Counted from the stretch's first letter, positions 10,347-29,086 are shown. The stretch is DNA of 64,000 bases from a virus (IMGVR_UViG_3300021979_000001:258948-322947), one strand, 5' to 3'. Numbers and translations are program-made. Notes: generated by a model not told the origin, from the sequence alone.

Positions 10347-10385
10347 AAAAAAGACCGGGTTGTATTTTCAGCCCGGTCTTTTTTT
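10347..10385 (+). terminator. rho-independent terminator
   Basis: AAAAAAGACCGGGTTG-TATTTT-CAGCCCGGTCTTTTTTT after the giant gene. Confidence 0.85.
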
Positions 10386-10443
10386 ATATCCAACGTTAAT
10401 AGGTAAATAAATAGATAAAACCAAGTTTATAGGCGTTTAATTT

Positions 10444-13265: not shown

Positions 13266-13347
13266 TTATTTCAAAATAATATAGACTTTAAAGGCCCTGG
13301 AATGTTATTTTTGGTTTACCAAAATTTCAGAATAGGGCCTTTAAATT

Positions 13348-13701
13348 ATGAACACTGATGATCGCCTAGATAAAGCACTGGATCACGCAAATTACGTGTC
13401 ATCACTGACAAATCAGCTTAAAGCTGCGTGGCTTAAAACCGAAACAAAACTGAACTATGCAGTCAATGGTGGAATATTTCCGATCACCATGGAATTGATC
13501 AGTTTTGTCGATTGTTTGATCCGAGCCGGGCACACTGAAACGATTCTGTTCGATAATAAAAACAGACCAATCAAAATCCAAAACCTTCCCGATTTTTATG
13601 CCGAAATAATGTCATTGTATCACGAAACCGCAAATGGTTATTACAATGATTATGAAAATGTGCGCAAATCACGTAATGTTGCAAAGGTGGTTGGCCTATA
13701 A
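13348..13701 (+). CDS. hypothetical protein (first gene of the enzyme cluster)
   Basis: 117-aa ORF whose stop overlaps the next start (TAATG). Confidence 0.7.
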   Translation: MNTDDRLDKALDHANYVSSLTNQLKAAWLKTETKLNYAVNGGIFPITMELISFVDCLIRAGHTETILFDNKNRPIKIQNLPDFYAEIMSLYHETANGYYNDYENVRKSRNVAKVVGL

Positions 13702-14600
13702 TGACTTCTCGTGGTTTTCTTATGTTTGCCCATAATAATGACCAAGTGCATTATGGGGCTATTGCATTATGTAACGCGCTGATGATTAAACATAATCTTG
13801 AAAATTCAGATGTATGTTTGATCACCGATGAAAGCACTATTCGCGAAATCAAAATCAGATGTGGTGAAGAAATGTTCGAAAAGGCATTTGACCATGTTGT
13901 GATTGATGATAGCAAAAACCGAAAGGGAAATACACAGGAACGTAGGTTTAATGACACACGTCATACCAATCATGATCTATTGTGGTATAATCAGTCTCGT
14001 GTAAATGCATTTAATTTATCCCCGTTCGACGAAACAATCCTGATTGATTGTGATTATCTTGTCATGAATAACATGTTTGATAAGGTGTGGGGAATTGCGG
14101 ATGACTATCTGATTAATAAACACGTCGTTACCCTGGAACATAAGTCAGCGGATGCTGTTGATCAACGATTATGCCCAACTGGTATACCGATGTATTGGGC
14201 AACATGCGTGTATTTCAAAAAAACCGATGCCGCTAAACTGCTATTTGATTTGGTAGAGCATATTCGTAATAACTATGAATATTATCAGTTTTTGTATGAT
14301 TTTTCCGGGGTTGTGTATCGGAATGATTATGCATTTTCAATTGCAATTCATATTTTGAACGGTTTTACGGAAAACAACGACAATGCATTCCCAACACCTT
14401 ATATCCTTACCAGTTTTGATTGTGACGATATTCATTCGATACCAAATATTAATGAAATCGTGTTCTTTGTTAACAACACAACAGAACAATGGAAATTTAT
14501 GGCACATCGAACAAAAGATTTGAATGTCCATATTTTAAACAAATTCGCAATTGATCGACAGGTTTCTCGCATAATTGAACTGTATGGTAAAACACAATGA
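13701..14600 (+). CDS. glycosyltransferase-like protein (GT-A fold, GT8-like)
   Basis: VCLITD, FDHVV, SPFDETILIDCDYL (DxD), YRNDYAFSIA. Confidence 0.65.
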   Translation: MTSRGFLMFAHNNDQVHYGAIALCNALMIKHNLENSDVCLITDESTIREIKIRCGEEMFEKAFDHVVIDDSKNRKGNTQERRFNDTRHTNHDLLWYNQSRVNAFNLSPFDETILIDCDYLVMNNMFDKVWGIADDYLINKHVVTLEHKSADAVDQRLCPTGIPMYWATCVYFKKTDAAKLLFDLVEHIRNNYEYYQFLYDFSGVVYRNDYAFSIAIHILNGFTENNDNAFPTPYILTSFDCDDIHSIPNINEIVFFVNNTTEQWKFMAHRTKDLNVHILNKFAIDRQVSRIIELYGKTQ

Positions 14601-15469
14601 ATAGAACATTTGAACGTGATCGGGGATTTGTCACTTTTGCACAAAATGGACAACATGACTACTTAAAAATGGCATATGCCCTGGCCCTTAGCATTAAAGC
14701 AACACAGTCCAATTATGGACATTTGTCAGTGTTTATTACCCCCGGTATGACAATTCCTGGCAAATACAAAGAAGTGTTTGATCATGTCATTGATATTCCA
14801 TGGGGTGATGAAGCCGAATGGGCAGACTGGAAACTGCAAAATGAATGGAAAGCATATCACATCACACCGTATCGGGAGACAATCAAACTCGATGCCGATA
14901 TGCTTTTTACCAGTGATGTATCAAGCTGGTGGGATTATATGGCAGTTCAAGATGTATGCATGACAACTAATACAAAAACATATCGAAACGAAGACATAAC
15001 AAGTGATTTCTATCGCAAGGCATTTGTCGCAAATAATCTACCAAATGTTTATACCGCGTTTATGTATTTTAAATATAGTGATCTCGCACAGGAAGTATAT
15101 CAACTGGCCGAAAATCTGTTCCATTATTGGAATGAATTATCGTTTAAGTATCTCGATGATGCCGAAACCAGACCTGACCAACCATCAACGGATATAGTCT
15201 TCGCTATGGCGGCTAAAATGGTTGGTGAGCGACTTTGCACGGTTTCTAATGGGGTAGCACCATCTTTCGTTCACATGCGCTCCAAGGCGCAGAAATGGCC
15301 GTTAAAAGGATATACCGAAATCTGGACAGATCATGTCCCGGTAGGTTTAACGGACGATTTACAACTAAAAATCGGTCGCCATCGACAAACCTTACCGTTT
15401 CATTACCACATTAAGTCATTTTTGACGGATGATGTGATTAAAACATATGAAAAAGCATTGGGTATTTAA
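14597..15469 (+). CDS. glycosyltransferase-like protein (GT-A fold, GT8-like), paralog of the preceding gene
   Basis: YLKMAYALALSIK, FDHVI, TPYRETIKLDADML (DxD), PSFVHM, PFHYH. Confidence 0.65.
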   Translation: MNRTFERDRGFVTFAQNGQHDYLKMAYALALSIKATQSNYGHLSVFITPGMTIPGKYKEVFDHVIDIPWGDEAEWADWKLQNEWKAYHITPYRETIKLDADMLFTSDVSSWWDYMAVQDVCMTTNTKTYRNEDITSDFYRKAFVANNLPNVYTAFMYFKYSDLAQEVYQLAENLFHYWNELSFKYLDDAETRPDQPSTDIVFAMAAKMVGERLCTVSNGVAPSFVHMRSKAQKWPLKGYTEIWTDHVPVGLTDDLQLKIGRHRQTLPFHYHIKSFLTDDVIKTYEKALGI

Positions 15470-16440
15470 TGTCTAAATATATAATCGTCACGGATGACCA
15501 CAATACTACCGATGATGTTATGCAAAAATCGGGTAAAATTTATTTCAAACCGCCATTTGGTGAAATCGTTGCCGTAAGTGGGCATGATGATAAAATTTTA
15601 TCGGAAAAATATGACAGCATCACAGTTGATAACGAAACAATCACAAACTTTCATAATGGCAGTCTGCAAGTTGAGGATTTTTTAGTTAGAACGACATTGG
15701 AATCACCCGATCAACCGGTATTGATACAGAGTCGATGCGTTATTACCGTTATTCCTGGCACCAGTTTTACCGAGATGGCACATGAGATGCCTGATACCAT
15801 GATCACGGCACGAACTTCCATTGATCGTGTAACGCGGACACTCGTGGTTAATATCGAAACCAAGTTTGAAATCGCCACGGATGCAACCAAAGATCAAACC
15901 CTTGTTTTATTCATTACCAAAGGCGATGATATTACCCAATTGTTCGCACAAGTGAAAGTATCATTGCTCGAACTTGCACGAGAACGATGGGTTGCTGTCC
16001 CGTTGCCCGTTGCCAAACTTCCCGAAAATTTAACTGTTTTTTACAAAGACATCATTGAAGGGATGTGGTTCGATGCAACCGAAACAGCCGGACATCGTGC
16101 CCGTTTGCCTATTGGTAGCATGGCAAAGGTAAAAACGTTTGAACGCGCACAGGTGCATCCTGACTATCCAAGTGTTGTAGCAACGATTTCTGACAATGAA
16201 TTAACGATCACAAAATATCTAGGTGGTGGTGCCCCAATATTATCAAACATCAAACAAATTCCAATTTTGATTACTGAAAAAGGTAACGCAGATAAAATAT
16301 TTTTTTCTGCTATCATTTCAAAAAAAGAAATAGACGGTGATGATCCTATTTCGTTAAAAGTAAAAAATATTCCAAATCGTTTTGATTTGGTTTCATTACC
16401 AATTTTCCACAATATGGTTATAATCGATGAAAACATTTGA
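15469..16440 (+). CDS. hypothetical protein with an internal two-domain repeat
   Basis: 323 aa, translationally coupled; LFITKGDD...LP.NLTV resembles ILITEKGNAD...IPNRFDL. Confidence 0.65.
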   Translation: MSKYIIVTDDHNTTDDVMQKSGKIYFKPPFGEIVAVSGHDDKILSEKYDSITVDNETITNFHNGSLQVEDFLVRTTLESPDQPVLIQSRCVITVIPGTSFTEMAHEMPDTMITARTSIDRVTRTLVVNIETKFEIATDATKDQTLVLFITKGDDITQLFAQVKVSLLELARERWVAVPLPVAKLPENLTVFYKDIIEGMWFDATETAGHRARLPIGSMAKVKTFERAQVHPDYPSVVATISDNELTITKYLGGGAPILSNIKQIPILITEKGNADKIFFSAIISKKEIDGDDPISLKVKNIPNRFDLVSLPIFHNMVIIDENI

Positions 16441-17317
16441 TATTACTGAATTTGATTTATTTTTACTGTCATATGATGAACCGAATGCAAATGAAAACTG
16501 GTCCCGATTATTGGAAATTGCCCCGTGGGCAGAACGTATTCATGGCGTCAAAGGGTTTGATGCAGCACATAAAGCAGCAGCAAATGCTAGTTCAACGGAC
16601 TGGTTCATCACCGTGGATGCGGATAACGTGGTGCGCCCCGAATTTTTCAACCTGAAAATCGATCTGGATGTAGATGCAACACCAAATCGGTGTTTCTCGT
16701 GGAATGCTGAAAACAAAATCAACGGGTTAATGTATGGCAATGGCGGACTGAAACTTTGGTCTAAACAATTCGTGATGAATATGCTGACCCATGAAAACGC
16801 AAAAGATAGCCAAACCTCGGTGGATTTTTGTTGGGAAACCGATTATGTGCAGAAACCGGAAACATATTCCGATGTGTATAATAATGGGTCGCCTTACCAG
16901 GCATACCGAGTTGGTTTTCGTGAAGGTGTTAAACTATCGCTTGACCGTGGACATCGGATAATGCCATCAGACATGACATCAAAGTTGCATCCTTTGAACA
17001 TGCGGAACCTTCGTATATGGGGATCAGTCGGGGCAGATGTTGAAAATGGCGTGTGGGCAATGTATGGTCTACGCAATGGATTAATGCATATGTGTAATAT
17101 GACATGGGACCACACCAAAATTATTGACTATGCGTGGTTTGACGAACATTGGAAAACTGCCGGGTTCGATAATATCATTGATCCCAATTCTGAACTATAT
17201 GATCGAATGGACGAAATGGGTGATGACATATTTAAACAAACCAAAATTTATATGCCATTACTTGGACAACGGGAATCGTCGTTCTTTCGGGAAACATACG
17301 CGCTACGTAATATTTAA
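16427..17317 (+). CDS. glycosyltransferase-like protein (GT2-like)
   Basis: FLLSYDEP, RIHGVKGFDAAHKAAA, WFITVDADN (DxD), YGNGGLKLW, AYRVGFREGVKL. Confidence 0.7.
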   Translation: MKTFDITEFDLFLLSYDEPNANENWSRLLEIAPWAERIHGVKGFDAAHKAAANASSTDWFITVDADNVVRPEFFNLKIDLDVDATPNRCFSWNAENKINGLMYGNGGLKLWSKQFVMNMLTHENAKDSQTSVDFCWETDYVQKPETYSDVYNNGSPYQAYRVGFREGVKLSLDRGHRIMPSDMTSKLHPLNMRNLRIWGSVGADVENGVWAMYGLRNGLMHMCNMTWDHTKIIDYAWFDEHWKTAGFDNIIDPNSELYDRMDEMGDDIFKQTKIYMPLLGQRESSFFRETYALRNI

Positions 17318-17368
17318 AATGCTGGAAATATCAGACATTATTCACTTAACAGGTATGAAATTATTAAA

Positions 17369-18826
17369 ATGACAAATGTTCCTGACAATATCGCCGGTGA
17401 CGGTGTATTTGACGACATCAATGGCGACTTGAAAAGTGATTATATGTCCGATGCCGAGCATATGGCAAAAAAGCTGGATACTGTGTCATCTAGCTTTTGT
17501 CTTGCCAAATGGACGCAAGTGTCTATCCATTTAACAAATGGACATACCCAGTCGTGCTATCATCCGAAAATTCATCCCATTCCGCTTGACGAACTGAAAA
17601 AAAGTCCATCCGCATTGCATAATACCTGTTTTAAAAAAGAACAGCGTAAAAAAATGATTGATGGGGTGCGGCCCGCCGAGTGCGAATATTGTTGGAAATT
17701 TGAAGATACTGGACATTTGTCAGACCGTCATTATCGGTCTGGTGAACCATTTGCCGCACAACGTTTTGATGAAGTGGTTGCAGCAAAATGGGATGCTGAT
17801 TTTACCCCATCTTATGTTGAAGTAAATTTCAATCAGGCATGCAATCTTAAATGTTCGTATTGTTCACCGCATTTATCGTCATCCTGGCAAGCTGAAATAG
17901 ATCAGTTTGGGCCTTACCCAACATTGGTCCCGCATAATAGTATCGATGCCTTGCGATCAAAAAATATGATGCCAATTCCAAACCGTGAACACAACCCGTA
18001 TGTTGACGCATTTTGGGAGTGGTGGCCCGACCTATATACAGAATTGAAGGTATTTCGCATGACCGGCGGGGAGCCGCTTATGGATAAAAATACATACCGA
18101 GTGATGGATTGGATCATTGATCATCCTAAAAAAGATTTGGAATTGTCCATAACTTCCAATTTGTCGGTTGAACCCGCACTTTGGAAAAAATTCATATCCA
18201 AACTAAATGAAATTGATAAAGATCGTAAAGTAGATCACTTTATGCTTTTTGTGTCGGTTGATAATTATGGAGACAAAGCAGAATATATTCGAAACGGTTT
18301 AGATTTCAATCGGCTTAAAGCCAATGTTGTTGATTATCTTTCAACCGTCAAACATGGATCATTAACATTCATCGTGACATATTCCTTGTTTTCCGTTTTT
18401 GGATTTCGTGATTTCCTAAAATGGGTGTTGGAATTGCGCGCCCAGTTTAGCGATACCCGTCAAAAAATTTGGTTTGATACCCCGGTTCTCGATTATCCAG
18501 CATGGCAATCTGTTAAAATGCTACCAAAAGAACATTGCCTCTATGTTGAACAAGATATTTCGTTCATGCAAAAGAACCTGGAAACCCGAGACCATCGACT
18601 AAAAGGGTTCAAAGACTATGAGGTAGCAAAGCTAAAACGAGTGCTTGACCAAATGCAGCAACATATGCCAAAAGAGCAGATGAAAAAAAATATGGTAAAT
18701 TTTTATCGTTTTTTTTCAGAGCATGACCATCGGCGTAATACCGATCTGCTTAACGCATTTCCTGAATTACAGGATTTCTGGCAAGAATGTGTTCTGTCTG
18801 ATTTGGAGTTAACCAATGAAAAATGA
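17369..18826 (+). CDS. radical SAM enzyme with N-terminal Twitch-like auxiliary cluster (rSAM-1)
   Basis: CNLKCSYC (CxxxCxxC), TGGEPL; N-terminal FCLAKW...SCYHP...ECEYCW. Confidence 0.9.
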   Translation: MTNVPDNIAGDGVFDDINGDLKSDYMSDAEHMAKKLDTVSSSFCLAKWTQVSIHLTNGHTQSCYHPKIHPIPLDELKKSPSALHNTCFKKEQRKKMIDGVRPAECEYCWKFEDTGHLSDRHYRSGEPFAAQRFDEVVAAKWDADFTPSYVEVNFNQACNLKCSYCSPHLSSSWQAEIDQFGPYPTLVPHNSIDALRSKNMMPIPNREHNPYVDAFWEWWPDLYTELKVFRMTGGEPLMDKNTYRVMDWIIDHPKKDLELSITSNLSVEPALWKKFISKLNEIDKDRKVDHFMLFVSVDNYGDKAEYIRNGLDFNRLKANVVDYLSTVKHGSLTFIVTYSLFSVFGFRDFLKWVLELRAQFSDTRQKIWFDTPVLDYPAWQSVKMLPKEHCLYVEQDISFMQKNLETRDHRLKGFKDYEVAKLKRVLDQMQQHMPKEQMKKNMVNFYRFFSEHDHRRNTDLLNAFPELQDFWQECVLSDLELTNEK

Positions 18827-19295
18827 GATGAACATTAAGCTATCAGACCGATTTACTTGCGGATATACAAAGGGTGAACTTTGGCAAACCGAAATAAAAA
18901 AGGTTGCATCCACCGTTAAATGCGAAATGGTCTTACCAGAAGATATTGAGGTAAGAACAACACACCCGAACCAGCTATATTTTGTTCACGAATATTATGG
19001 ACCAATCGGCGAAACTCATTTGTCGTATTCAAGCGACATTACATCGAACAGCCATTGCTATTATTCATATCAACCGGCAATTTATGCAGCATGGTTAGTC
19101 AAGTCTATTATTAGCAAGGCAGGTAACAATATACCGACATTACGGACGGATAAAGGCGTAGCATCATTTTGTGATAATTACCCAACCCTCCAAAGCTATT
19201 ACATGTATATACTTCAACCCTCGATTGAAGATGAATTGCTGCGTTTAGTGTATATTCGAAATACCTATGGAGGTATAATAGATCGTGTCAATTAA
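18816..19295 (+). CDS. hypothetical protein
   Basis: 159-aa ORF overlapping its neighbours in the operon. Confidence 0.55.
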   Translation: MKNEMNIKLSDRFTCGYTKGELWQTEIKKVASTVKCEMVLPEDIEVRTTHPNQLYFVHEYYGPIGETHLSYSSDITSNSHCYYSYQPAIYAAWLVKSIISKAGNNIPTLRTDKGVASFCDNYPTLQSYYMYILQPSIEDELLRLVYIRNTYGGIIDRVN

Positions 19296-19683
19296 CTGTA
19301 ATCAAAAATTTCACCTATTGCCACCAAAAACAATAATAGTAACCAAATCATATGCAACCAATGTGGATAACACAATAGAAAATATAGCAAAACAATATAA
19401 TATCGAACTCATTGAAACACCATTATATACAAAGTGTGTGGATCATCGTGATAATAAAATCATGAAACGGAGTGAATTAGATATTGACATTATACACTAT
19501 TCGTTTTCACCAGGACTATCGTTATTGGGATATTGGTTTTATCATCGTGTTTCTTTCGATGAAGAACTAAGTTTTAGTGAATTTTATATTGAATACAAAG
19601 AAAACATGCTAAAACAAGATCGATTACTTACTATGGTTGAATTAAGATCGAATTTTTTTGATTACATTTCTATATACGGGTGA
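19285..19683 (+). CDS. hypothetical protein
   Basis: 132-aa ORF with GTG start, preceded by GGAGG. Confidence 0.55.
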   Translation: MSINCNQKFHLLPPKTIIVTKSYATNVDNTIENIAKQYNIELIETPLYTKCVDHRDNKIMKRSELDIDIIHYSFSPGLSLLGYWFYHRVSFDEELSFSEFYIEYKENMLKQDRLLTMVELRSNFFDYISIYG

Positions 19684-19691
19684 TAAAATAA

Positions 19692-21041
19692 ATGCCAAGA
19701 CAAGACAATGAAACGTATGATGAATATCGAAAGCGGATTATTGATCCAATTTCAAAATCGTTTTGTGCGGCCAAATGGTATAATGCAACAATTTGGCTTG
19801 GATCAGGGATGACCACTTCGTGCCATCATCCATTACCACATAAAATTGATCCCGACTTAATTAAAACCAACCCAAAATTATTGCATAATACTCCACAGAA
19901 GAAAGAAGCCCGCCGCCAGATGCAATGCGGGGAACGTCCCGGCGAATGCGATTATTGCTGGAAAGTTGAAGATATTAACCGTGGTAATGTATCAGATAGA
20001 ACATTCAAAACCGTCATTTATGATGATGATGATATTAAAACAATCAGCACAATGCCGATTGATCAGGATGTTGATCTGAAAACGCTTGAAATTTCATTTG
20101 ATCGGGCGTGCAATCTTGCGTGTTCGTATTGTAACCCGGCGTTTTCAACGACTTGGGTGCGTGACATTAAAACAAATGGTCCCTATACTGATTTGGTAAC
20201 CGACGGACGGGGGCATTTCAATCACTCTCACGATTCTTCTCAATTATTCAAATTCACCGAACCAAATCCATACATAACTGCATTTTGGGAATGGTGGCCT
20301 GATTTATCAAAATCACTAATGGAATTGCGGGTAACCGGTGGTGAGCCAACCATGAGTGGTGATTTTTGGAAGTTGTTGAATTGGTTTGTTGAAAACGAAG
20401 GATCACATATCCGGTTTGCGACGAATACCAACCTATGTATGAAAGATGAATTGTTAGATCGTTTGTTAATCGCCGCTGATAAAATTAATGATTTCCAAAT
20501 TTATACCAGCAACGAATCATCCGGTCAGATGTCTGAATATATTCGGGATGGATTAAACTGGGATACATGGGTTTCTAATTTTGAACGAGTGGCGGAAACC
20601 GGTAAAATACAATTAAGCATGATGATGACAATTAATGCATTATGCTTATATGGCCTGCCCGAATTTTTAGATCAGCAAATGATTTGGAAACAAAAATACG
20701 GAAAAGATTATCCATGTTTTTCTGTTAATATTTTGCGTTTCCCAAGTTTTCAAAGTGCGTTAGTTCTTCCCGAAGAATTGCGCATGGAACGCAAAGACGC
20801 CATCGCAAAATGGTATTCGGCCAATAAAGATAGCAAACTATTGCATGAGTTTGAACGTGCGCAATTGCAACGTCTTATTGATTACTTGGATGTGGTTAAA
20901 AGTCCACACGAATTGGCAGCAGATAGAAATCTGCTCGAACGCGATTTCAAACGATTTTATGAACAGTATGACAAGCGCCGGGGAAAAAACTTTATCGAAA
21001 CCTTCCCGGCATTAGCTGATTGGTATAATGGCATCGCATGA
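19692..21041 (+). CDS. radical SAM enzyme with N-terminal Twitch-like cluster (rSAM-2)
   Basis: CNLACSYC, TGGEPT; FCAAKW...SCHHP...ECDYCW. Confidence 0.9.
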   Translation: MPRQDNETYDEYRKRIIDPISKSFCAAKWYNATIWLGSGMTTSCHHPLPHKIDPDLIKTNPKLLHNTPQKKEARRQMQCGERPGECDYCWKVEDINRGNVSDRTFKTVIYDDDDIKTISTMPIDQDVDLKTLEISFDRACNLACSYCNPAFSTTWVRDIKTNGPYTDLVTDGRGHFNHSHDSSQLFKFTEPNPYITAFWEWWPDLSKSLMELRVTGGEPTMSGDFWKLLNWFVENEGSHIRFATNTNLCMKDELLDRLLIAADKINDFQIYTSNESSGQMSEYIRDGLNWDTWVSNFERVAETGKIQLSMMMTINALCLYGLPEFLDQQMIWKQKYGKDYPCFSVNILRFPSFQSALVLPEELRMERKDAIAKWYSANKDSKLLHEFERAQLQRLIDYLDVVKSPHELAADRNLLERDFKRFYEQYDKRRGKNFIETFPALADWYNGIA

Positions 21042-22375
21042 CAGATTATCGAAAATTCAAAAAGGAAGTCATGGACCCGGTATCCGATACCTTTTGTGCG
21101 GCCAAGTGGTTGAACTCAACCATTTGGCTGAATCAGGGATCAACTGCGTCATGCCACCATCCTGCTATGCATAATATCGCGGTGGATGCGCTTACGAATA
21201 ATCCGGCAGCACTGCATAACACCGATACCAAGAAAGCCGCCAGGGCAGAAATGATGGCCGGGAAACGCCCATCAGAATGTGACTATTGTTGGCGGGTTGA
21301 GGATACGGATACCACCGCAATATCTGATCGGACATTCAAAACATTTCAATTTTCAAAATTCGATATAGATGCAGTGGTTCAATCACCGGATCAAAATCAT
21401 AATCCCAAAAGTCTTGAAATCGCGTTTGATCGGGTATGTAATTTTGCATGTTCATATTGTAGTGCAACATTTTCTACCACGTGGGCACGCGATATTAAAC
21501 AAAATGGCCCCTATAAAAATCATACAACCGATGATCGCAAGCATTATCAAACAGACGCACCATGGGCGCAACCATATCTACACGATGATGACAATCCTTA
21601 CATCACTGCATTTTGGAAGTGGTGGCCCGATCTAGCAAATGATTTGGATGAAATTCGAATCACTGGTGGCGAACCGTTAATGTCAACTAGTGTTTGGAAA
21701 ATGTTTGACTGGTTTGAAACACATCCCGATACATCTATGCGACTGTCCATTAATACAAACCTTGGTGCCAAAGATAGTATTATCAAACAGTTAATCGATA
21801 AATCCAAAAACATATCGAATTTGAGTATTTACACATCGTGTGAAGCATATGGTAAACAGGCGGAATATATTCGAGATGGCCTTGATTATTCAGCATGGCT
21901 CAATAATATGAATTTGATTGGGGAAACATCCAATATTTCATTAAATGTCATGATGACGATTAATGCGTTGTGCTTATTTTCAATCACAGATTTTCTGGAT
22001 GATTTGTGTATCCTGAAATCTAAATTTGGAAAAAGCCGTGTGCTGTTTTCGGTGAATATCATGCGATACCCACAATTTCAATCGATAGACGTTCTTCCTG
22101 ATGATTTTAAACAATTGAAATCAACCGAAATTCAGGCATGGTTAGATAATAATTCACAACATTTGGTTGATTTTGAACGTTCACATGTCGAACGACTGAT
22201 TAAACAACTACAAATTGTGAATAAATATGATAGAACTGATTTAATACATGATTTTAAATCATTTTTTTCAGAATATGATATTCGCCGTGGGAAATCATTA
22301 GAAACTGTTTTCCCATTAATTGGGACTGTTATTAATGACAACGACAACAAAAACAATATCGGATTTATGGAATAA
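21038..22375 (+). CDS. radical SAM enzyme with N-terminal Twitch-like cluster (rSAM-3), close paralog of rSAM-2
   Basis: CNFACSYC, TGGEPL; FCAAKW...SCHHP...ECDYCW; shares FSTTWxRDIKxNGPY with rSAM-2. Confidence 0.9.
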   Translation: MTDYRKFKKEVMDPVSDTFCAAKWLNSTIWLNQGSTASCHHPAMHNIAVDALTNNPAALHNTDTKKAARAEMMAGKRPSECDYCWRVEDTDTTAISDRTFKTFQFSKFDIDAVVQSPDQNHNPKSLEIAFDRVCNFACSYCSATFSTTWARDIKQNGPYKNHTTDDRKHYQTDAPWAQPYLHDDDNPYITAFWKWWPDLANDLDEIRITGGEPLMSTSVWKMFDWFETHPDTSMRLSINTNLGAKDSIIKQLIDKSKNISNLSIYTSCEAYGKQAEYIRDGLDYSAWLNNMNLIGETSNISLNVMMTINALCLFSITDFLDDLCILKSKFGKSRVLFSVNIMRYPQFQSIDVLPDDFKQLKSTEIQAWLDNNSQHLVDFERSHVERLIKQLQIVNKYDRTDLIHDFKSFFSEYDIRRGKSLETVFPLIGTVINDNDNKNNIGFME

Positions 22376-23186
22376 TTTAGTTGATGCTAATTATGCCAAC
22401 AAGATAACCAGATGGTGCCCTAGTGATGATGAAAATAGGTTCATAGCAGAAGGAAACTATTATACCGAAAATAGTTTTGATTACCGGTATAATAGTCATG
22501 GTTTTCGCTGCGACACGTTTGATAATCATCCATATGATGCCCGTATTATTTTTATTGGATGCTCAATCACGTTTGGGTGTGGTGTCCCTGTAACTGACAG
22601 TTTCGGGTATCAAGTTATCAACAAATTTCGATCTGATGATAACTTACATATTCCATATTGGAACCTGGCGCATTGTAGTAAAAGCATTGATTATATCGCC
22701 AGAACATTGACAAAATTTGTTCCAGTAATAAAACCCGATCTGGTGATTATTATTTCCCCTCCGGCACATCGTCGTGAAGTATTTGTCCCAGATAAAGATG
22801 AACCAGATAAAAATTATTTGCATGATTACATAAATGTAGATTATCTACCAAATCCGCAATTCGGCAAACATATTATTGAAGTTCATAACGCAGATAATGA
22901 TCAAATGAATTACGTGCGAAACATGGAATTAATTCACAATGTCATGATGGCACATAATAGTGATTATTTGTGGGATAGTTGGGACATGTATCAAGAATAT
23001 CATGGTCTGTCACCATCAATCATGAATCAACGCATTAACAGTAAATTTGATTTTAGATTAGAGCCTCGCGCCCGCGATGGGTTACATCCTGGAATTAATG
23101 TCCATACCCAATATGCAAAGAACTTATACAACGAAATAAAACCAAAAATATTGCATATAGCACGTAAGAAACAACACACTAAATAA
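22335..23186 (+). CDS. SGNH/GDSL-fold hydrolase or acyltransferase-like protein
   Basis: YRYNSHGFRC, IFIGCSITFG (block I), WNLA (block II), RDGLHPG (DxxH); ATG at 22335. Confidence 0.7.
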   Translation: MTTTTKTISDLWNNLVDANYANKITRWCPSDDENRFIAEGNYYTENSFDYRYNSHGFRCDTFDNHPYDARIIFIGCSITFGCGVPVTDSFGYQVINKFRSDDNLHIPYWNLAHCSKSIDYIARTLTKFVPVIKPDLVIIISPPAHRREVFVPDKDEPDKNYLHDYINVDYLPNPQFGKHIIEVHNADNDQMNYVRNMELIHNVMMAHNSDYLWDSWDMYQEYHGLSPSIMNQRINSKFDFRLEPRARDGLHPGINVHTQYAKNLYNEIKPKILHIARKKQHTK

Positions 23187-23215
23187 GAGAATAACTGAAT
23201 AGAGTAAATTGTCCC

Positions 23216-23317
23216 ATGCTACGGTTTTTATTATTTCCATATCATTATTTTGCATCAATAATCAAACGTCATAATCGTATTCGTCAACTCAAAAAACGTG
23301 ACCCGTTTATTTACTAA
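23216..23317 (+). CDS. 33-aa peptide MLRFLLFPYHYFASIIKRHNRIRQLKKRDPFIY (not in the ORF track)
   Basis: ATG at 23216; TAA at 23315-23317 overlaps the carbamoyltransferase ATG (TAATG coupling). Confidence 0.75.
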   Translation: MLRFLLFPYHYFASIIKRHNRIRQLKKRDPFIY

Positions 23318-24777
23318 TGCTTTATTTAGGAATCACATCATTAGGGCATGATGCATCTGTTGCCGTAGTTGAAGATAATGAAATTATCTTTGCCGGACAT
23401 GCTGAACGCTATTCTCGGATTAAAAATGATGGCAATATCAATCAAGCATTACTGGATGATGCGTTATCAGGTAGATCGCCAGATAAAATCATATGGTATG
23501 AACAGCCATTTATAAAAAAATCACGTCAATTTTTTTGTGGTCAATGGGATGGATTAGCGGTTCAACGGGTTAAAAAACATTTATCATTATTTGGGTTAGA
23601 CCAAATACCGGTTGAATACGCGGGGCACCATGAAAGTCATGCCGCTGGTGGATTTTATACCAGTTCATTTGATGATGCCACCATCGCGGTAATTGATGCT
23701 ATTGGCGAATGGACAACAATTAGTATTTGGCAAGCGGATTATACCGGAATGTTCCTCAAATGGTCGCAACGGTATCCGCATAGCATCGGATTGCTTTACA
23801 GTGCAATGACGCAACGCTGTGGTTTTAAACCAAACGAAGAAGAATATATAATGATGGGCATGGCCGCATTTGGGGATGATCGTTATACCGATTTGATAAA
23901 ACGCGATTTCATTAAAGATATGTCCGGGCCTGCATTTTCATTAAAAGAGAATGTCCATAGAGGCATAAAATGGTGGAAACCTGAAATAACAAATGTCGAA
24001 CACCTGGCCGCAAGTATGCAATCTATTACCGAAGAATATTTGTGCAATCTGACCAAATGGATTGCAACTAATCTTCCATCAAAAAACTTGATATTGTCGG
24101 GCGGAGTTGCCTTAAACTGTGTTGCCAATAGTCAGATTGCAAAGCAGGGAACGCATGATGAAATTTGGATCATGCCCAATCCAGGCGATGCGGGGTCGTC
24201 GTTAGGGGCGATTGCTGCATCAACATACCAAAAACTCAATTGGAAATCTCCATATTTGGGACATGATATTAACCGTGATCCTGATATTGACGGGGCAGTG
24301 CAGGCATTGGTTTCTGGGGAAGTCATTGGGTTTGCCAACGGTCGAGCCGAATATGGCCCGCGTGCATTAGGAAACAGATCATTATTAGCTGATCCACGGG
24401 GCGATAAATGCAAAGATCGAGTAAATCGGTTAAAAAAGAGAGAAATGTTTCGTCCGTTTGCCCCAGTCATAATTGAATCAATGGCAAATATTTATTTTGA
24501 CATGCCGGTTAAATCAAGCCCATATATGCAATTTGTTGCGAAAGTAAAGCGTCCTGATTTATATCCTGCTATTACACATAAGGATGGGACCGCTAGGGTG
24601 CAAACGATCCGTGCTGATCAAAATCCAATCTTTTATAAATTGTTAGAACAATTTTATAATGAAACCGGATGTCCTATGCTTCTTAATACCAGCTTGAATA
24701 TCAAAGGACAACCTTTAGTGAATACCTGGGAAGATGCATTATCATTCCAGAACCATTACTCGGTGCCGGTTTTCTGA
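23317..24777 (+). CDS. O-carbamoyltransferase (NodU/CmcH/TobZ family)
   Basis: HDASVA, ERYSRIKND, HHESHAA, DAIGE, SGGVALNCVAN, GDAGSSLGA, EYGPRALGNRSLLADP, KKREMFRPFAP, DGTARVQT, LNTSLN. Confidence 0.95.
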   Translation: MLYLGITSLGHDASVAVVEDNEIIFAGHAERYSRIKNDGNINQALLDDALSGRSPDKIIWYEQPFIKKSRQFFCGQWDGLAVQRVKKHLSLFGLDQIPVEYAGHHESHAAGGFYTSSFDDATIAVIDAIGEWTTISIWQADYTGMFLKWSQRYPHSIGLLYSAMTQRCGFKPNEEEYIMMGMAAFGDDRYTDLIKRDFIKDMSGPAFSLKENVHRGIKWWKPEITNVEHLAASMQSITEEYLCNLTKWIATNLPSKNLILSGGVALNCVANSQIAKQGTHDEIWIMPNPGDAGSSLGAIAASTYQKLNWKSPYLGHDINRDPDIDGAVQALVSGEVIGFANGRAEYGPRALGNRSLLADPRGDKCKDRVNRLKKREMFRPFAPVIIESMANIYFDMPVKSSPYMQFVAKVKRPDLYPAITHKDGTARVQTIRADQNPIFYKLLEQFYNETGCPMLLNTSLNIKGQPLVNTWEDALSFQNHYSVPVF

Positions 24778-25250
24778 TTAAGAATTTTTATAAATTCTTG
24801 CACCCATTGGTTAACACGCGGACGACATGATTTCATGCTTTCACGATGATCACGATTATTAAAAAAGATTTCATCATGTTCATGTGGTGGACCATGCCAC
24901 TCCGACCAGCCATATTTGTTTTCTTTATACCCAATAAAACCATCAGCGTCATATTCGTTTTGAAATCTAACAACATCATTTGCGTCAATATTCAAATCAA
25001 TGATCTGTCCATTTAAGATAACGTATTGATGTTTTTCATTTCCAGCCAGTTTCCCACCAAATACTTTTTGTGCGAACATAGAAGTGAACTTACACGAACC
25101 ACTTAGGTCATCTGGGGCAAAATCACCACGTTCTTTGCTGCGTTCTTTCCATTTTTCAAACACGAAGTCCTTAGCCAATCGCAAATTATCAGGGGTTGCC
25201 GATATAGGTAAGGTAACGTTATGTTGTTCGAATAAATCTTGATACCGCAT
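24756..25250 (-). CDS. putative papain/transglutaminase-like protein with capsid-targeting-like N-terminus
   Basis: Starts MRYQDLFE; spaced Cys-His-Asp (GSCKF...HQYV...IIDL). Confidence 0.5.
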   Translation of the reverse strand: MRYQDLFEQHNVTLPISATPDNLRLAKDFVFEKWKERSKERGDFAPDDLSGSCKFTSMFAQKVFGGKLAGNEKHQYVILNGQIIDLNIDANDVVRFQNEYDADGFIGYKENKYGWSEWHGPPHEHDEIFFNNRDHRESMKSCRPRVNQWVQEFIKILNQKTGTE

Positions 25251-25254
25251 ATTC

Positions 25255-26283
25255 TTAACTGGGCCTTACCATAATTTCTATTATTCCGAAATCATCATCG
25301 GTTTTATTTTCCAATGATTTTCCGATAACGGACCCTGGCACTAAGTCATATCCCGCTGCCGAAACACCAACGCCATATGCCGGGGCAGTCACAATCGGAT
25401 CACCTTTTTTAACCGGTCCAACAACCAGACACGGAACCCGACCTACGAGCGCAACATATGGGTGCGTAATGTCATTCCCCGCATTTTTATTCATTTCCAA
25501 TGCTGGATTTGTTGAAATAACCCCAGCAACACATGGGTCCATGAAGTTTTCAGTTACGGTAATTTCTTTATTGCCGCCAATGACAACAACTGTTCCTGGC
25601 AAATATTCACTATCCGATTCGTATCGTTCCGCAACGTCGGCATATAACGCTTGAATTGCGGTCCCAGAAAAAGTTGTTGCATACATAGTCGCAAACGTCG
25701 CACTAGATGATCCAATGTTGATTGTGTTTGCTGCATTGGGCACAATATCACCGCTGATCGTATCGCCGGATTTGCTTACTTTGCCACCAATCTGATTTGA
25801 AACAGTGGTAGCAAAATTTGGATCATCACCAAGAGCCTGTGCCAATTCGTTTAAGGTATCAAGGGTTTCCGGTGCAGAATCAACCATTGCACTGATTGAA
25901 TCATCGACATATGTTTTTGTCGCAAATGATGTATTAATCGTCGTTGATATTGCAACATTTGATGAACCATCAAATGAAACTGATCCGGTTACATCCCCGG
26001 TTAGTGAAATCGCACGACTGTTTGATAATGTTAGGGCACTATCAGCTTCAAGCCCGGAACCATCCCCGTCAACAGTTTTTAATTTTGTAAGAATTTCATT
26101 TGCAGTGAGGGTAGAACTGGTTAATGCACCAATTTGTGCCGCAGTTACACTGTGCGGGTTGGATAGATCACTGATATGATCATACGTATCATTAAAGTTA
26201 TTGTTAACTTTGCCAATTACTGACCGAAGGGTATCACCATCTGTTGTCCCCGGCGTCCCTGCATTAATAACTTGTTTAGTCAT
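25255..26283 (-). CDS. tail fibre protein with C-terminal YADxAE domain
   Basis: INAGTPGTTDGDTLR N-terminus, APETLDTLNELAQALGDDPNFATT fibre motif; C-terminal domain paralogous to 11283-12329. Confidence 0.8.
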   Translation of the reverse strand: MTKQVINAGTPGTTDGDTLRSVIGKVNNNFNDTYDHISDLSNPHSVTAAQIGALTSSTLTANEILTKLKTVDGDGSGLEADSALTLSNSRAISLTGDVTGSVSFDGSSNVAISTTINTSFATKTYVDDSISAMVDSAPETLDTLNELAQALGDDPNFATTVSNQIGGKVSKSGDTISGDIVPNAANTINIGSSSATFATMYATTFSGTAIQALYADVAERYESDSEYLPGTVVVIGGNKEITVTENFMDPCVAGVISTNPALEMNKNAGNDITHPYVALVGRVPCLVVGPVKKGDPIVTAPAYGVGVSAAGYDLVPGSVIGKSLENKTDDDFGIIEIMVRPS

Positions 26284-26355: not shown

Positions 26356-26718
26356 CTATTTGAAAATCATTGGAGTCATCGTAACATTGACCCGTGGGAT
26401 TGCTTCCCAGCCATGATCCGAAATAAGTTTATTGGAATCGACGGGCTTGAACCCGGCTGACCGATCCAAAGACCAGGTAATATGATATATTTTGCCATCA
26501 TCCCGTAGCCTTGTCCCGTCAACGCTTACAATCAGTGCTTCAATACCGGCATCATCACATGCATACCCACTTACATATGTATTTGCCATTGGTGGCAAAA
26601 CTGAATTTGCACCAAACTGATATGTTACATGATGTGCAACCACGTCGGGGAACTTTGGTGGAAACATCGCAAGTAATTTCTGTTTTTCCAATTCTGGTAA
26701 CAAATATCCAGTATACAT
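26356..26718 (-). CDS. 2H phosphoesterase superfamily protein
   Basis: Two HxT motifs, AHHVTYQF and IYHITWS. Confidence 0.65.
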   Translation of the reverse strand: MYTGYLLPELEKQKLLAMFPPKFPDVVAHHVTYQFGANSVLPPMANTYVSGYACDDAGIEALIVSVDGTRLRDDGKIYHITWSLDRSAGFKPVDSNKLISDHGWEAIPRVNVTMTPMIFK

Positions 26719-26729
26719 TTAGCCCATCC

Positions 26730-27203
26730 TCATGTTGTTGGTATTTTTCCATCCAATACATAAACCACCGGACGGAAATTGATTGCGGTTTCTTCAATAA
26801 TTCCCGAAATAATTTTCCATGATCCGTTTGCCAATCCGGCACCAATCAACGGAAACGCCACCCGATCATAACTTTCATATAATCGAGCATGTTCGTTAAT
26901 TTTATATAAACATTGCCGAATACCGGTGTAATTAGCATATACAACAGTTGGATCACGGCCATAATTTTTCTGTGTAACCGCATTAATAATCGTGGGTCCA
27001 CCCATCGGGTGAACCATAGTAATCGTTCCAACTTTTAATTCCCCAAGATCATACGCGGCTCGATAAACATCATATGCAATCGGCCACCTTTCACGAATCA
27101 ATTTCGCAATTCCACTTTTCATCACCCCGTGTGAATTACATCCGTGACAAATAACGTTTTCAGACGATGATAATAAATCGCCCTTGAAATATTGAATTTC
27201 CAT
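26730..27203 (-). CDS. macrodomain protein (Poa1/T4 Tk.4-like, ADP-ribose processing)
   Basis: KGDLL, ICHGCNSHGVMKSGIAK, INAVTQ, FPLIGAGLANGSW. Confidence 0.9.
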   Translation of the reverse strand: MEIQYFKGDLLSSSENVICHGCNSHGVMKSGIAKLIRERWPIAYDVYRAAYDLGELKVGTITMVHPMGGPTIINAVTQKNYGRDPTVVYANYTGIRQCLYKINEHARLYESYDRVAFPLIGAGLANGSWKIISGIIEETAINFRPVVYVLDGKIPTT

Positions 27204-27276
27204 AATATCCTATCGTTTGTAAATGTTTAAATATTATTGATATTGTGTTGTTGCTGCCATTAAGGGATACATTGAT

Positions 27277-27555
27277 CTAATGTAGGACCGCATACATTGC
27301 TCCTATTACCAGACCCGCCGAAATAAACAGAATTGCCACAATACCCCTCGCCACGTTCCGATACCGATTAATATCACCCATAATCTTGATCGGGATTAAT
27401 GATATAACCAGCATTGAAACAATAAACAGGATTGACACAATACCCACCATCATGTCCCGATACTGGTCAATATCATCCATAATCTTGATCGGGATTAATG
27501 ACAAAATCAGTATTGAAATAATGGATAGAATTGTCAGCAAATACACTACCATCAT
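27277..27555 (-). CDS. small membrane protein with 33-aa tandem duplication
   Basis: Hydrophobic; SLIPIKIM.DI..YR repeated; identical 24-mer at 27379 and 27478. Confidence 0.6.
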   Translation of the reverse strand: MMVVYLLTILSIISILILSLIPIKIMDDIDQYRDMMVGIVSILFIVSMLVISLIPIKIMGDINRYRNVARGIVAILFISAGLVIGAMYAVLH

Positions 27556-27653
27556 CCAATCCCCTAATCACCCTGAAACAACAACATCAATCAATGAAAC
27601 ACTAAAATCATATTAATAAAGTTTACAATAATTAGTTTCATTCATATCGTGGT

Positions 27654-27821
27654 TTAGATGTCATCTTTGTTATATTGTTGTAACCGATCCATCAGATTGG
27701 ATGCTTTGGTCATATATTCTTCCCAAAAGAATTCAACATATTTTTCGCCTTTTTCAAGCGCCACAAGTTCTTTTGCCAATTCTTCAATTGATATTGAAAT
27801 GATTAATTTATTGCAGACCAT
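27654..27821 (-). CDS. hypothetical 55-aa protein
   Basis: MVCNKLIISISIEELAKELVALEKGEKYVEFFWEEYMTKASNLMDRLQQYNKDDI read from the sequence. Confidence 0.5.
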   Translation of the reverse strand: MVCNKLIISISIEELAKELVALEKGEKYVEFFWEEYMTKASNLMDRLQQYNKDDI

Positions 27822-28027
27822 AAAACCAATGCCTTAAAATTTTTGAATAACATACTAAAATTATATGAAAAAATCAATTTAAAAAAAGAAAACTTTTTTT
27901 GCAAAACAGAAAAAAACTATTGCAATCAAATCAAGTATCGTGCATAAATAAACGTGTTGGAGCAATCACGCACAACATGATACTCCCGGATGTCGAGGGT
28001 ATCATCTATTATCGATGGAGGTCATCG

Positions 28028-29086
28028 ATGTCAAACTACGACTACCTTGTTTTTATTGGGCGGTTCCGCCCGTTTACGTTGGCGCACCTCGAAGTTATCA
28101 GGGCCGCGCTCAAAGAAGCCGACAATCTGATCATGATTGTGGGTTCATCATTCTCACCCCGGACCACTCGGAACCCGTTTACTTTTAACGAAGTCAATGA
28201 TATGATTTCGTTGAGTTTAAACCCCGATGAACGGCGTCGGGTTCATATCACCCCCTTGGCCGATTTTATGTATGCCGATCATCTTTGGGTCGAACAAACC
28301 CAGAAAATTGTTGGCATGTATGCTGGGGAAAACAGCAAAGTTGGTCTGATCGGCCATCAAAAAGACTATTCGTCTTATTATCTGAAAATCTTCCCGATGT
28401 GGAGCAACGTCAACGTTGCAAACTATCGTGGGATTAATGCGACTGCCGCCCGTAACGGCTATTTCTCCAATATTTCTAAAGAATGGTTGCATGCTGCCGA
28501 AGACATGTTACCAACCGCTGTGATCGAATATCTCTCGAAATGGCGCGATGGTGAAGCATTTGCCGACATGATGGAAGAATACGATTTCATTCGGCAATAT
28601 CACATCGAATGGGGAAAAGGCCCGCATATGACTGCGGATGCCATTGCCATTCAGGCAAATCACATCTTGATGGTTAAACGCGGCAATCGGCCAGGAAAAG
28701 GGCTTTGGGCCTTCCCTGGTGGGTTTTTGGACATTGATAAATCTGAAACCCTTGCCGAAGCCGCCATTCGGGAATTGAAAGAAGAAACAAACATCAATAT
28801 TCCCAACGGCGCATTACATGGCTCTATGAAGTTGAGCCGGGTGTTTGACTCGCCAGACCGCGACCCACGTGGCCGGATTATCACGTCTGCCCATTTGATT
28901 GACCTTGACCACGAAGTTACCCGGTCATTGAATAAAACCGGCACTGCTGGTTTGACAGAAATTAAACCGGGCAGCGATGCCGCCCATGCCGAATGGGTTC
29001 CATTGTCGAGCCTTTCATCGGAAACCATGTTTGCTGATCATTGGCACATCCTGCGCGCCATGATGAATGCATACAAAGCAAATTAA
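28028..29086 (+). CDS. nadM: bifunctional NMN adenylyltransferase / ADP-ribose pyrophosphatase (NadM-Nudix)
   Basis: FIGRFRPFTLAH (HxGH-like), RNPFT, INATAAR; Nudix box GGF.D..ETL.EAAIRELKEET; RDPRGR; GGAGGT SD before ATG 28028. Confidence 0.9.
   Translation: MSNYDYLVFIGRFRPFTLAHLEVIRAALKEADNLIMIVGSSFSPRTTRNPFTFNEVNDMISLSLNPDERRRVHITPLADFMYADHLWVEQTQKIVGMYAGENSKVGLIGHQKDYSSYYLKIFPMWSNVNVANYRGINATAARNGYFSNISKEWLHAAEDMLPTAVIEYLSKWRDGEAFADMMEEYDFIRQYHIEWGKGPHMTADAIAIQANHILMVKRGNRPGKGLWAFPGGFLDIDKSETLAEAAIRELKEETNINIPNGALHGSMKLSRVFDSPDRDPRGRIITSAHLIDLDHEVTRSLNKTGTAGLTEIKPGSDAAHAEWVPLSSLSSETMFADHWHILRAMMNAYKAN

Follow-up and report, generated by a model that had tools for sequence, protein, structure and literature searches.

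The virus record IMGVR_UViG_3300021979_000001, which is 457,165 bp long and complete according to CheckV, carries an enzyme cassette that on balance is taken to encode a soluble cytoplasmic pathway for assembling and chemically editing a sugar decoration from host nucleotide sugars. The cassette lies within bases 258948–322947 of the record, a stretch of 64,000 nt that is termed the window; positions given below are those of the window unless stated otherwise. Thirteen open reading frames (ORFs), all on the plus strand, fill positions 13348–24777, and nine of the 12 junctions between them overlap, by 1–56 nt; the three non-overlapping junctions have gaps of 51, 8 and 29 nt. The ORFs encode three putative glycosyltransferases (B299, C290 and E296), three radical S-adenosylmethionine (SAM) enzymes (rSAM1–3), an SGNH-like protein (K288), a 33-aa micropeptide, a carbamoyltransferase (CT) and four further proteins, A117, D323, G159 and H132. 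A first-pass annotation had described a co-directional block of ∼11 kb with mostly overlapping stop and start codons, located next to tail-fibre genes, and had listed all of these products except the last four. Its observation of the block is confirmed, and its interpretation, a pathway for a carbamoylated, radical-modified glycan, is partly supported.

All block proteins are soluble; the highest 19-residue value in a hydropathy scan is 1.55, and no hydrophobic or membrane-type segment is present. A lipid-linked surface-polysaccharide locus was also considered and is ruled out, as the block has no membrane proteins. Virus-encoded glycosylation is a known kind of system, and so is tailoring by glycosyltransferases, radical SAM enzymes and a CT together. 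The present variant is built around an uncharacterised radical SAM family and a unit of peptide, CT and DUF6071 genes.

The cassette is conserved among large environmental phages. In a gene-neighbourhood survey, which had been proposed in the first-pass annotation as a check, the 80 best viral loci by match to rSAM2 were compared (81 loci for per-gene tblastn counts). The genes co-occur in a conserved order, p230-TF348-TF348-p311-(A117)-B-C-(118 aa)-E-rSAM1-rSAM2, which is kept in most of the 80 loci. After rSAM2, relatives carry three or four more distant N-twitch radical SAM genes, genes without assignment, one to three DUF6071 genes and the CT gene. Matches to B299, C290, E296 and the CT are found in 68, 69, 70 and 54 of the 81 loci, respectively, and many loci without a match end before the gene in question. 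The cassette is among the most widespread unassigned enzyme sets in large environmental phages.

The terminal gene (23317..24777, plus strand) encodes a 486-aa O-carbamoyltransferase of the TobZ/NodU type, as had been annotated. Both Pfam domains are recognised, Carbam_trans_N at 154 bits (E 7.5e-45, cut-off 24) and Carbam_trans_C at 185 bits (E 1.2e-54, cut-off 27), and the protein matches phrog_1601 (E 2e-103). Residues H104, H105, H108, D127 and D291 and the segment G347-P-R-A-L-G-x-R-S355 are invariant in 24 sequences; we take these positions, a His/Asp metal site and a YrdC-like adenylate-forming block, to map onto the motif residues of TobZ. By its domains and motifs, the CT is predicted to be an intact TobZ/NodU-type enzyme. 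The likeness to TobZ, NodU and CmcH, and to aminoglycoside tailoring with BtrN and AprD4, extends to the Pfam domains, the metal and adenylate motifs and the occurrence of a CT with glycosyltransferases and twitch radical SAM enzymes. The phage CT differs in its two companions, a DUF6071 protein and a micropeptide that is obligatorily encoded upstream.

The micropeptide (23216..23317, plus strand) is a basic sequence ending in QLKKRDPFIY, and its stop codon overlaps the CT start (TAATG), an overlap also present in six relatives. It is present in 53 of the 54 phage loci that hold the CT N-terminus, so the peptide that had been annotated is real and conserved. The phage consensus is M-x-WLKNL-x-NRIKLEIRYRKKLKELRKRDPFIYK, with K-x-D-P-F-I-Y invariant. 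Positions range from a 3 nt overlap with the CT gene to 2 kb upstream, and where the peptide gene is distant, DUF6071 genes intervene. In bacteria, a basic peptide ending in [KR]-x-DP[FY][ILVM]Y(K) is found directly upstream of the CT gene in 28 of 67 loci; the tail is invariant from actinomycetes to phages and the N-terminal half varies. This conservation rules out a chance ORF. In three Kyanoviridae phages, C48C1, S-CAM8 and HTVC008M, a search up to 2.5 kb from the CT gene did not detect the peptide. When 26 of the peptides were compared with Pfam by hmmscan (E up to 10), no family emerged, only scattered noise. A complex prediction for CT and the 33-aa peptide returned a score of 0.00, which counts neither for nor against binding.

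K288 (22320..23186, plus strand; two start codons are possible, TTG at 22320 and ATG at 22335) is a divergent SGNH/DUF6071-like protein. DUF6071 is an SGNH-like Pfam family of unknown function. The SGNH assignment of the first-pass annotation is kept as putative, through a profile comparison only, in which K288 aligns with the S212 family of relatives (hhalign 94%, E 1.5e-7) over residues 74–154 alone; members of that family match DUF6071 and Lipase_GDSL_2. K288 itself has no Pfam match at E up to 5, whereas the partner beside the CT in relatives, in Ralstonia phage RsoM2USA (ORF200 and ORF201) and in bacteria reaches the DUF6071 cut-off. By eye, GCS (block I) and DGLHP (block V) can be recognised. 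The protein also matches, by tblastn at E 1e-18 to 3e-21, genes directly upstream of the peptide and CT genes in Reyranella and Geodermatophilus, the latter homologue displaying a weak Lipase_GDSL_2 match.

A K288-type or DUF6071 gene adjoins the peptide and CT genes in most bacterial loci, and peptide, CT and DUF6071/SGNH genes form a three-gene unit common to phages and bacteria. No Pfam family for the peptide and no paper on the unit were found. The likeliest role of the peptide is that of a small partner subunit of the CT unit, in view of its translational coupling, its unvarying C-terminal tail and the fact that it goes with the CT and not with the radical SAM enzymes. The unit, shared by phages, actinomycetes, myxobacteria and proteobacteria, is a compact, testable module, and the role of its peptide would inform many CT gene clusters.

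The CT of the window shares 47–51% identity with the CTs of phage relatives and 60% with those of Reyranella and other bacteria. The closest cellular CTs, 50–60% identical over the full length, come from a range of bacteria that includes Reyranella, many actinomycetes and myxobacteria, and their contigs reach several Mb. In a FastTree phylogeny the CT falls in an eight-member clade whose other members are all bacterial (support 0.88), outside the phage-cassette clade (support 0.996); the tree is midpoint-rooted and does not give the direction of transfer. As the CT and K288 are both nearer to bacterial than to phage counterparts, the comparison suggests that the K288-peptide-CT unit was exchanged with a bacterial-type unit. 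Five contigs filed under bacterial metagenome-assembled genomes (MAGs; Lishizhenia, Haliscomenobacter, Polynucleobacter and Legionella) carry a phage-type peptide and the cassette gene u357, in four of the five next to the CT gene; these are probably phage contigs binned into MAGs.

A gene-content analogy is found in the saxitoxin cluster, where sxtI-sxtJ-sxtK-sxtL likewise combine a CT (SxtI) with small accessory ORFs (SxtK, 54 aa), with no sequence match. SxtL is presumably a GDSL-type esterase, and SxtK may have a PFIY tail. In a published table sxtL, the next gene, is listed as decarbamoylation (PMC2679770). The phage block differs in having no SxtJ-like membrane protein and in a peptide with no Pfam family at E up to 10. 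An SxtK-like identity of the micropeptide was considered and was dropped when the Pfam scans gave no family.

The genes found beside the unit in bacteria speak for a chemistry of sugars or glycosides; they include GT2 and GT28-like genes, a C290 homologue, methyltransferases and AsnB-like enzymes. In Geodermatophilus the CT, peptide and SGNH genes are flanked by two GT2 genes, and in Sorangium by a GT2-type and an AsnB-like gene. A Clostridia MAG holds two methyltransferases, a TruD-like enzyme, DUF6071, the CT, a C290-like GT8-type protein, an AsnB-like enzyme and a xylose-isomerase-like TIM barrel; the C290 homologue, 33% identical, adjoins the CT gene on its downstream side. With the parts it has in common with the phage cassette, this locus looks like one of a nucleoside or glycoside natural-product type. 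On a 2.58-Mb gammaproteobacterial contig (L094), an integrase, a GT28-like gene, DUF6071, the peptide, the CT, a 151-aa ORF, a radical SAM gene and a transposase gene are found together. The radical SAM enzyme is NF033640-like and 43% identical to rSAM1, and the island represents a small bacterial form of the cassette, carried by a mobile element. Among phages, the CT gene of HTVC008M adjoins a gene annotated as UDP-glucose dehydrogenase.

Such loci also bring to mind a small-molecule product, a metabolite of the carbamoylated-glycoside or nucleoside type, comparable to the products of aminoglycoside and nucleoside antibiotic clusters. TobZ and BtrN/AprD4 act in aminoglycoside pathways, and AprD4 and BlsE are among the fold matches of rSAM2. 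The many actinomycetes and myxobacteria among the closest cellular relatives of the CT, and the Clostridia locus, where a TruD-like enzyme, methyltransferases and an AsnB-like enzyme accompany the unit, point the same way. On the other hand, no core scaffold-forming enzyme, transporter or resistance gene is present in the window, and the position of the cassette after fibre genes is conserved in most of the related loci examined, so that a product of this type is considered improbable.

The three radical SAM enzymes that had been annotated all carry an N-terminal twitch domain and belong to the NCBIfam family NF033640 (N_Twi_rSAM), whose curated cut-off is 170 bits: rSAM1 (17369..18826, plus strand) scores 349 bits, rSAM2 (19692..21041, plus strand) 319 bits and rSAM3 (21038..22375, plus strand) 325 bits. 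Mutual identity is 31–47%, the highest value being that of rSAM3, a paralogue of rSAM2. The rSAM1 orthologue of relatives is 46–53% identical and always precedes rSAM2. The latter is the best conserved enzyme of the cassette, with relatives in at least 598 viral contigs, of which the best 80 are 55–63% identical. In an alignment of 32 relatives and paralogues, C140-x3-C144-x2-C147 of rSAM2 and residues C25, C44, C86 and C89 are invariant; the CX3CX2C motif, the four N-terminal cysteines and a score above the cut-off are common to rSAM1–3. Pfam SPASM matches occur at the N-terminus of radical SAM paralogues of relatives. A genome-wide scan detects ten NF033640 paralogues above the cut-off (at 127.2, 134.0, 135.3, 145.3, 203.9, 276.4, 278.7, 280.0, 308.3 and 447.9 kb of the genome), those of the block among them, along with three weaker matches to radical SAM proteins. 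The window contains a fourth copy, at 49312–50517. The family has no characterised member, and a literature search found no paper on it. Here it has 10 paralogues in one phage genome and occurs within a cassette of glycosyltransferases and a CT. The product would define new enzymology, as several members of a radical SAM family without a known reaction are involved.

Structure prediction for rSAM2 gives a model with a predicted local distance difference test score (pLDDT) of 91, and a single-sequence search of the PDB returned no match. Foldseek relates the model to the peptide maturases SuiB, SkfB and CteB and also to the sugar and nucleotide enzymes BlsE, viperin and AprD4.

The three glycosyltransferases that had been annotated are borne out by remote homology only. 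B299 (13701..14600, plus strand), C290 (14597..15469, plus strand) and E296 (16427..17317, plus strand) have no Pfam match and no single-sequence PDB match; family alignments were therefore built from the sequences of relatives. For C290, the family profile has a match to glycogenin-1 (GT8) at E 1e-4 that is confined to positions 4–112, in the N-terminal half that includes the DxD motif (D99-x-D101). D101 and H226 are invariant in the family alignment, and no Pfam Glyco_transf_8 match is present. C290 may accordingly be termed a glycogenin-like (GT8-like) glycosyltransferase. B299, related to C290 as a weak paralogue (E 7e-7), has a DxD motif at D116 and D118, both invariant in the family alignment; its profile has no match in the PDB, and it is tied to GT8 only through C290.

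The E296 family profile likewise has no match in the PDB, and the predicted structure shows a GT-A fold with a C-terminal helical domain. The top Foldseek match of the model is A64R of PBCV-1 (E 1.9e-4), with low TM-scores of 0.32–0.43, and a resemblance to the S-glycosyltransferase SunS is also seen. The invariant residues D64, D66 and N67 would fit a DxD transferase. E296 homologues form at least 8000 clusters at 90% identity, none of those listed with a Pfam domain and every name shown being 'hypothetical'. Three tandem E296 paralogues, 31–38% identical, are found elsewhere, at 26568–29064 of the genome, near a weaker radical SAM match at 25063–25599 of the genome; together these may represent a second island of glycosyltransferase and radical SAM genes.

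Several of these matches would also fit a pathway centred on the peptide, similar to those for peptides that are made on the ribosome and modified after translation (RiPPs), in which the 33-aa peptide is the substrate or carrier and radical SAM enzymes, glycosyltransferases and CT modify its DPFIY(K) end, for example with a sugar placed on the Tyr in the manner of glycogenin. The peptide is present in nearly all of the phage loci counted above, the RiPP maturases SuiB, SkfB and CteB are top Foldseek matches of rSAM2, and E296 resembles SunS. Glycogenin glucosylates a Tyr, and C290 resembles glycogenin. However, an invariant tail with a variable N-terminal half is the reverse of most RiPP precursors, and the high-ranking maturase matches have a root-mean-square deviation of ∼13 Å. 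In bacterial chromosomes the peptide goes with CT and SGNH genes; among the loci, all gathered through the CT, from which the bacterial context of NF033640 is known, L094 is the only one of clearly chromosomal nature with a radical SAM gene of this type no more than 4 kb away. The overlap of stop and start codons in the window and six relatives also suits a co-produced subunit, and a peptide-centred pathway is unlikely. Equally doubtful is a form of it in which the KRDPFIY(K) micropeptide would serve as a scaffold, its C-terminal Tyr primed by GT8 enzymes, edited by N-twitch radical SAM enzymes and capped by the CT. If true, this would represent a phage pathway for a peptide-anchored glycoconjugate whose CT-peptide-DUF6071 core is held in common with actinomycetes and myxobacteria.

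The supply of sugars was assessed over the whole genome. No members of the Epimerase (short-chain epimerase/dehydratase), NTP_transferase (sugar nucleotidyltransferase) and DegT aminotransferase families were detected in a search of the genome, and sugar diversity would therefore come from the editing of host sugars. The phage appears to take host nucleotide sugars and to diversify them by radical chemistry.

The absence of a recognisable deoxycytidylate hydroxymethylase, reported earlier for the window, holds for the complete 457-kb genome, in which a search for the ThyA family (PF00303) found none; the control was positive in 10 of 14 genomes. This bears on the proposal that phage DNA is the target, with a modified base decorated by the glycosyltransferases and CT in the way known from T4 glucosyltransferases. 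The block enzymes are all cytoplasmic, and relatives have an early-type sigma-70-like promoter (described below), as would be expected if the genes served to modify DNA. Carbamoylation of 5-hydroxymethylcytosine in DNA, RNA and deoxynucleoside triphosphates is carried out by one phage CT (PMC8670742). That CT belongs to the same family and is phage-encoded, but it comes with a ThyA-family hydroxymethylase, of which this genome has none; the CT of the window, at 486 aa, is also shorter than that 63-kDa protein. In the same study DNA-modifying CTs co-occur with ThyA homologues, and CTs on unmodified contigs adjoin glycosyltransferases (PMC8670742). ThyA is absent in two of five near-complete relatives and reads as a canonical thymidylate synthase in the other three (PFNVASY, DAHIY, ∼350 bits). 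The lack of a hydroxymethylase genome-wide, the canonical ThyA of three relatives and the published co-occurrence pattern weaken the case for DNA. No Tet/JBP match was detected, in a search whose control was silent, and the closest cellular relatives of the CT sit among GT2 genes. Hypermodification of DNA or nucleotides is accordingly given little credence. In the three relatives with ThyA, the gene lies on the opposite strand, 5–8 kb past the end of the cassette locus that was compared; since it reads as a canonical thymidylate synthase, its nearness to the cassette looks coincidental.

From the families, motifs, solubility, gene order and peptide-CT-SGNH unit observed, we infer reactions, an order of steps and an acceptor for the sugar-decoration pathway. 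B299, C290 and E296 would transfer sugars onto an acceptor chosen by the phage. Abstraction of hydrogen by a 5′-deoxyadenosyl radical would allow rSAM1–3 to edit the sugars, for example by epimerisation, oxidation, deoxygenation or C-C chemistry. The CT would form carbamoyl-AMP from carbamoyl phosphate and ATP and then O-carbamoylate a sugar hydroxyl, and the SGNH/DUF6071 protein may remove or move an O-acyl or carbamoyl group. The 33-aa KRDPFIY peptide would most likely be a small partner subunit of this terminal unit. A carbamoylated, radical-modified glycan remains the best reading; the enzyme classes given in the first-pass annotation were right, and GT2 genes are found beside the bacterial units. 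The acylation by SGNH folds and the sugar oxidation by radical SAM enzymes that it had also invoked are analogies only.

Some points weigh against the sugar-decoration pathway. The radical SAM fold gives no pointer to a substrate, because the nearest structures include both peptide and sugar or nucleotide enzymes. For three ORFs of the block, no homologue was detected among the relatives examined. In addition, co-transcription with the fibre genes drops out as an argument for a virion acceptor, because in relatives a terminator and a host-type promoter separate the two. Reaction, product and acceptor are all ones that we infer.

As to the acceptor, a phage-made (virion) protein is the first choice, put forward tentatively; a small molecule or nucleotide is a weaker candidate, and a host target or surface somewhat weaker still. 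The micropeptide itself, DNA and any other acceptor are each improbable. Virion glycosylation in PBCV-1 (A64R) and of the capsid and tail in mycobacteriophages offers a parallel, with soluble glycosyltransferases beside structural genes and the Foldseek match of E296 to A64R. It differs in the low TM-scores of that match and in that the present cassette is known from genes alone. To our knowledge, neither of these systems uses radical SAM enzymes or a CT. A new kind of phage decoration may be represented here, with relevance to host recognition, defence evasion or immune recognition.

The fibre neighbourhood is real. Upstream of the block are found a 3389-aa gene and then p230, TF348 and p311. 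TF348 and a minus-strand gene at 25255–26283 match tail-fibre PHROGs, in keeping with what had been annotated, and the C-terminal domain of the fibre-like TF348 is also found in the minus-strand fibre gene. The gap that follows p311, the last fibre-like gene, holds in relatives a terminator-like hairpin with a U-run that overlaps a near-consensus sigma-70 promoter. In 26 of 52 loci of relatives this gap contains a sigma-70-like promoter with 10 or more of the 12 positions matched (5.5% of random windows of the same loci), and in 17 of 52 one with 11 or more matched (0.8% of random windows). There the cassette is its own transcription unit, with a host-type and probably early promoter, and the argument from structural context for decoration of the virion, made in the first-pass annotation, is weakened by the terminator and promoter at this boundary.

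In the window, the 82-nt gap between p311 and A117 contains an inverted repeat that forms a 59-nt hairpin (13287..13345, plus strand) ending 2 nt before the A117 start codon. The predicted RNA fold has −25.9 kcal/mol and z −5.05, none of 200 shuffles being as stable, and lacks a U-run; at this boundary of fibre genes and cassette, possible roles are those of a processing site, an attenuator and a translational occluder. The best promoter match in the gap is only 9 of 12, no better than chance, and sigma-70-like matches over the whole window are at the chance level (59 found, 58.9 expected). No exact TATAAATA is found near the block. Co-transcription of the cassette with the fibre genes is not established for the window.

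The early-type promoter of relatives would also be compatible with a host-directed function, in which a host protein or an envelope glycan precursor is altered during takeover, for example to block superinfection. LPS-type (lipopolysaccharide) genes of T4-like cyanophages reportedly have a proposed role of this kind, in a host-surface change that blocks superinfection. Nol-like CTs are common in cyanophages and pelagiphages, some beside genes annotated as sugar- or methyl-transfer enzymes, and GT-A-fold enzymes include toxins that glycosylate host proteins. Yet the block has no membrane protein, flippase, polymerase, lipid-carrier transferase or hydrophobic segment, and the B-C-E-rSAM1 half of the cassette stays beside fibre-like genes even in RsoM2USA. 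Glycosylation of host proteins or remodelling of the host surface is rated as rather unlikely.

RsoM2USA, the Ralstonia phage, is the closest isolate and a cultivable carrier of the cassette, which is present there in two intact halves 92 kb apart. The first half (217–223 kb) consists of a p311-like gene, A, B, C, x, E, rSAM1 and an E paralogue, and retains its fibre-gene adjacency, with ORF350 as the E296 homologue and ORF349 as rSAM1; the second (123–128 kb) consists of rSAM2, DUF6071, the peptide, DUF6071 and the CT. ORF200 and ORF201 are annotated as hypothetical, and both reach the DUF6071 cut-off. Between them lies an unannotated micropeptide ORF ending in RKQDPFIYK (∼14030–14150 of locus L001), upstream of the CT gene, ORF199. 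The homologous region of this phage includes a gene called tail sheath by its authors and virion proteins confirmed by mass spectrometry (PMC8504454). The paper makes no mention of the cassette genes (PMC8504454).

The remaining ORFs of the block are without assignment. A117 (13348..13701, plus strand) is a small protein with no match in family searches; tblastn detects it in RsoM2USA and 11 relatives, and in every case B299 follows immediately. D323 (15469..16440, plus strand) sits where relatives carry the 118-aa gene and is an ORFan: a search of 5.8 billion proteins returned only D323 itself, and neither family searches nor a profile comparison with the families of relatives gave a match. 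G159 (18816–19295) and H132 (19285–19683), both on the plus strand, are small ORFs with no family match. D323, G159 and H132 have no tblastn match among the 81 related loci compared and fill slots held in relatives by other small genes or by none.

At the nucleotide level, a megablast of the block against 50,697 phage records gave no match. Of the genes upstream, p230 is a member of a PHROG family of unknown function, and the p311 family profile has no match in the PDB. A canonical intrinsic terminator follows the 3389-aa gene (10348–10386), and after it, ahead of p230 (to 10415), GGTAAATAAATAG is a possible T4-type late-promoter-like motif. At the other end of the block, the 3′ end of the CT gene overlaps the 3′ end of a convergent 164-aa gene by 22 nt (24756–24777); no terminator lies between the two, and the convergent gene displays a weak YunG-like match.

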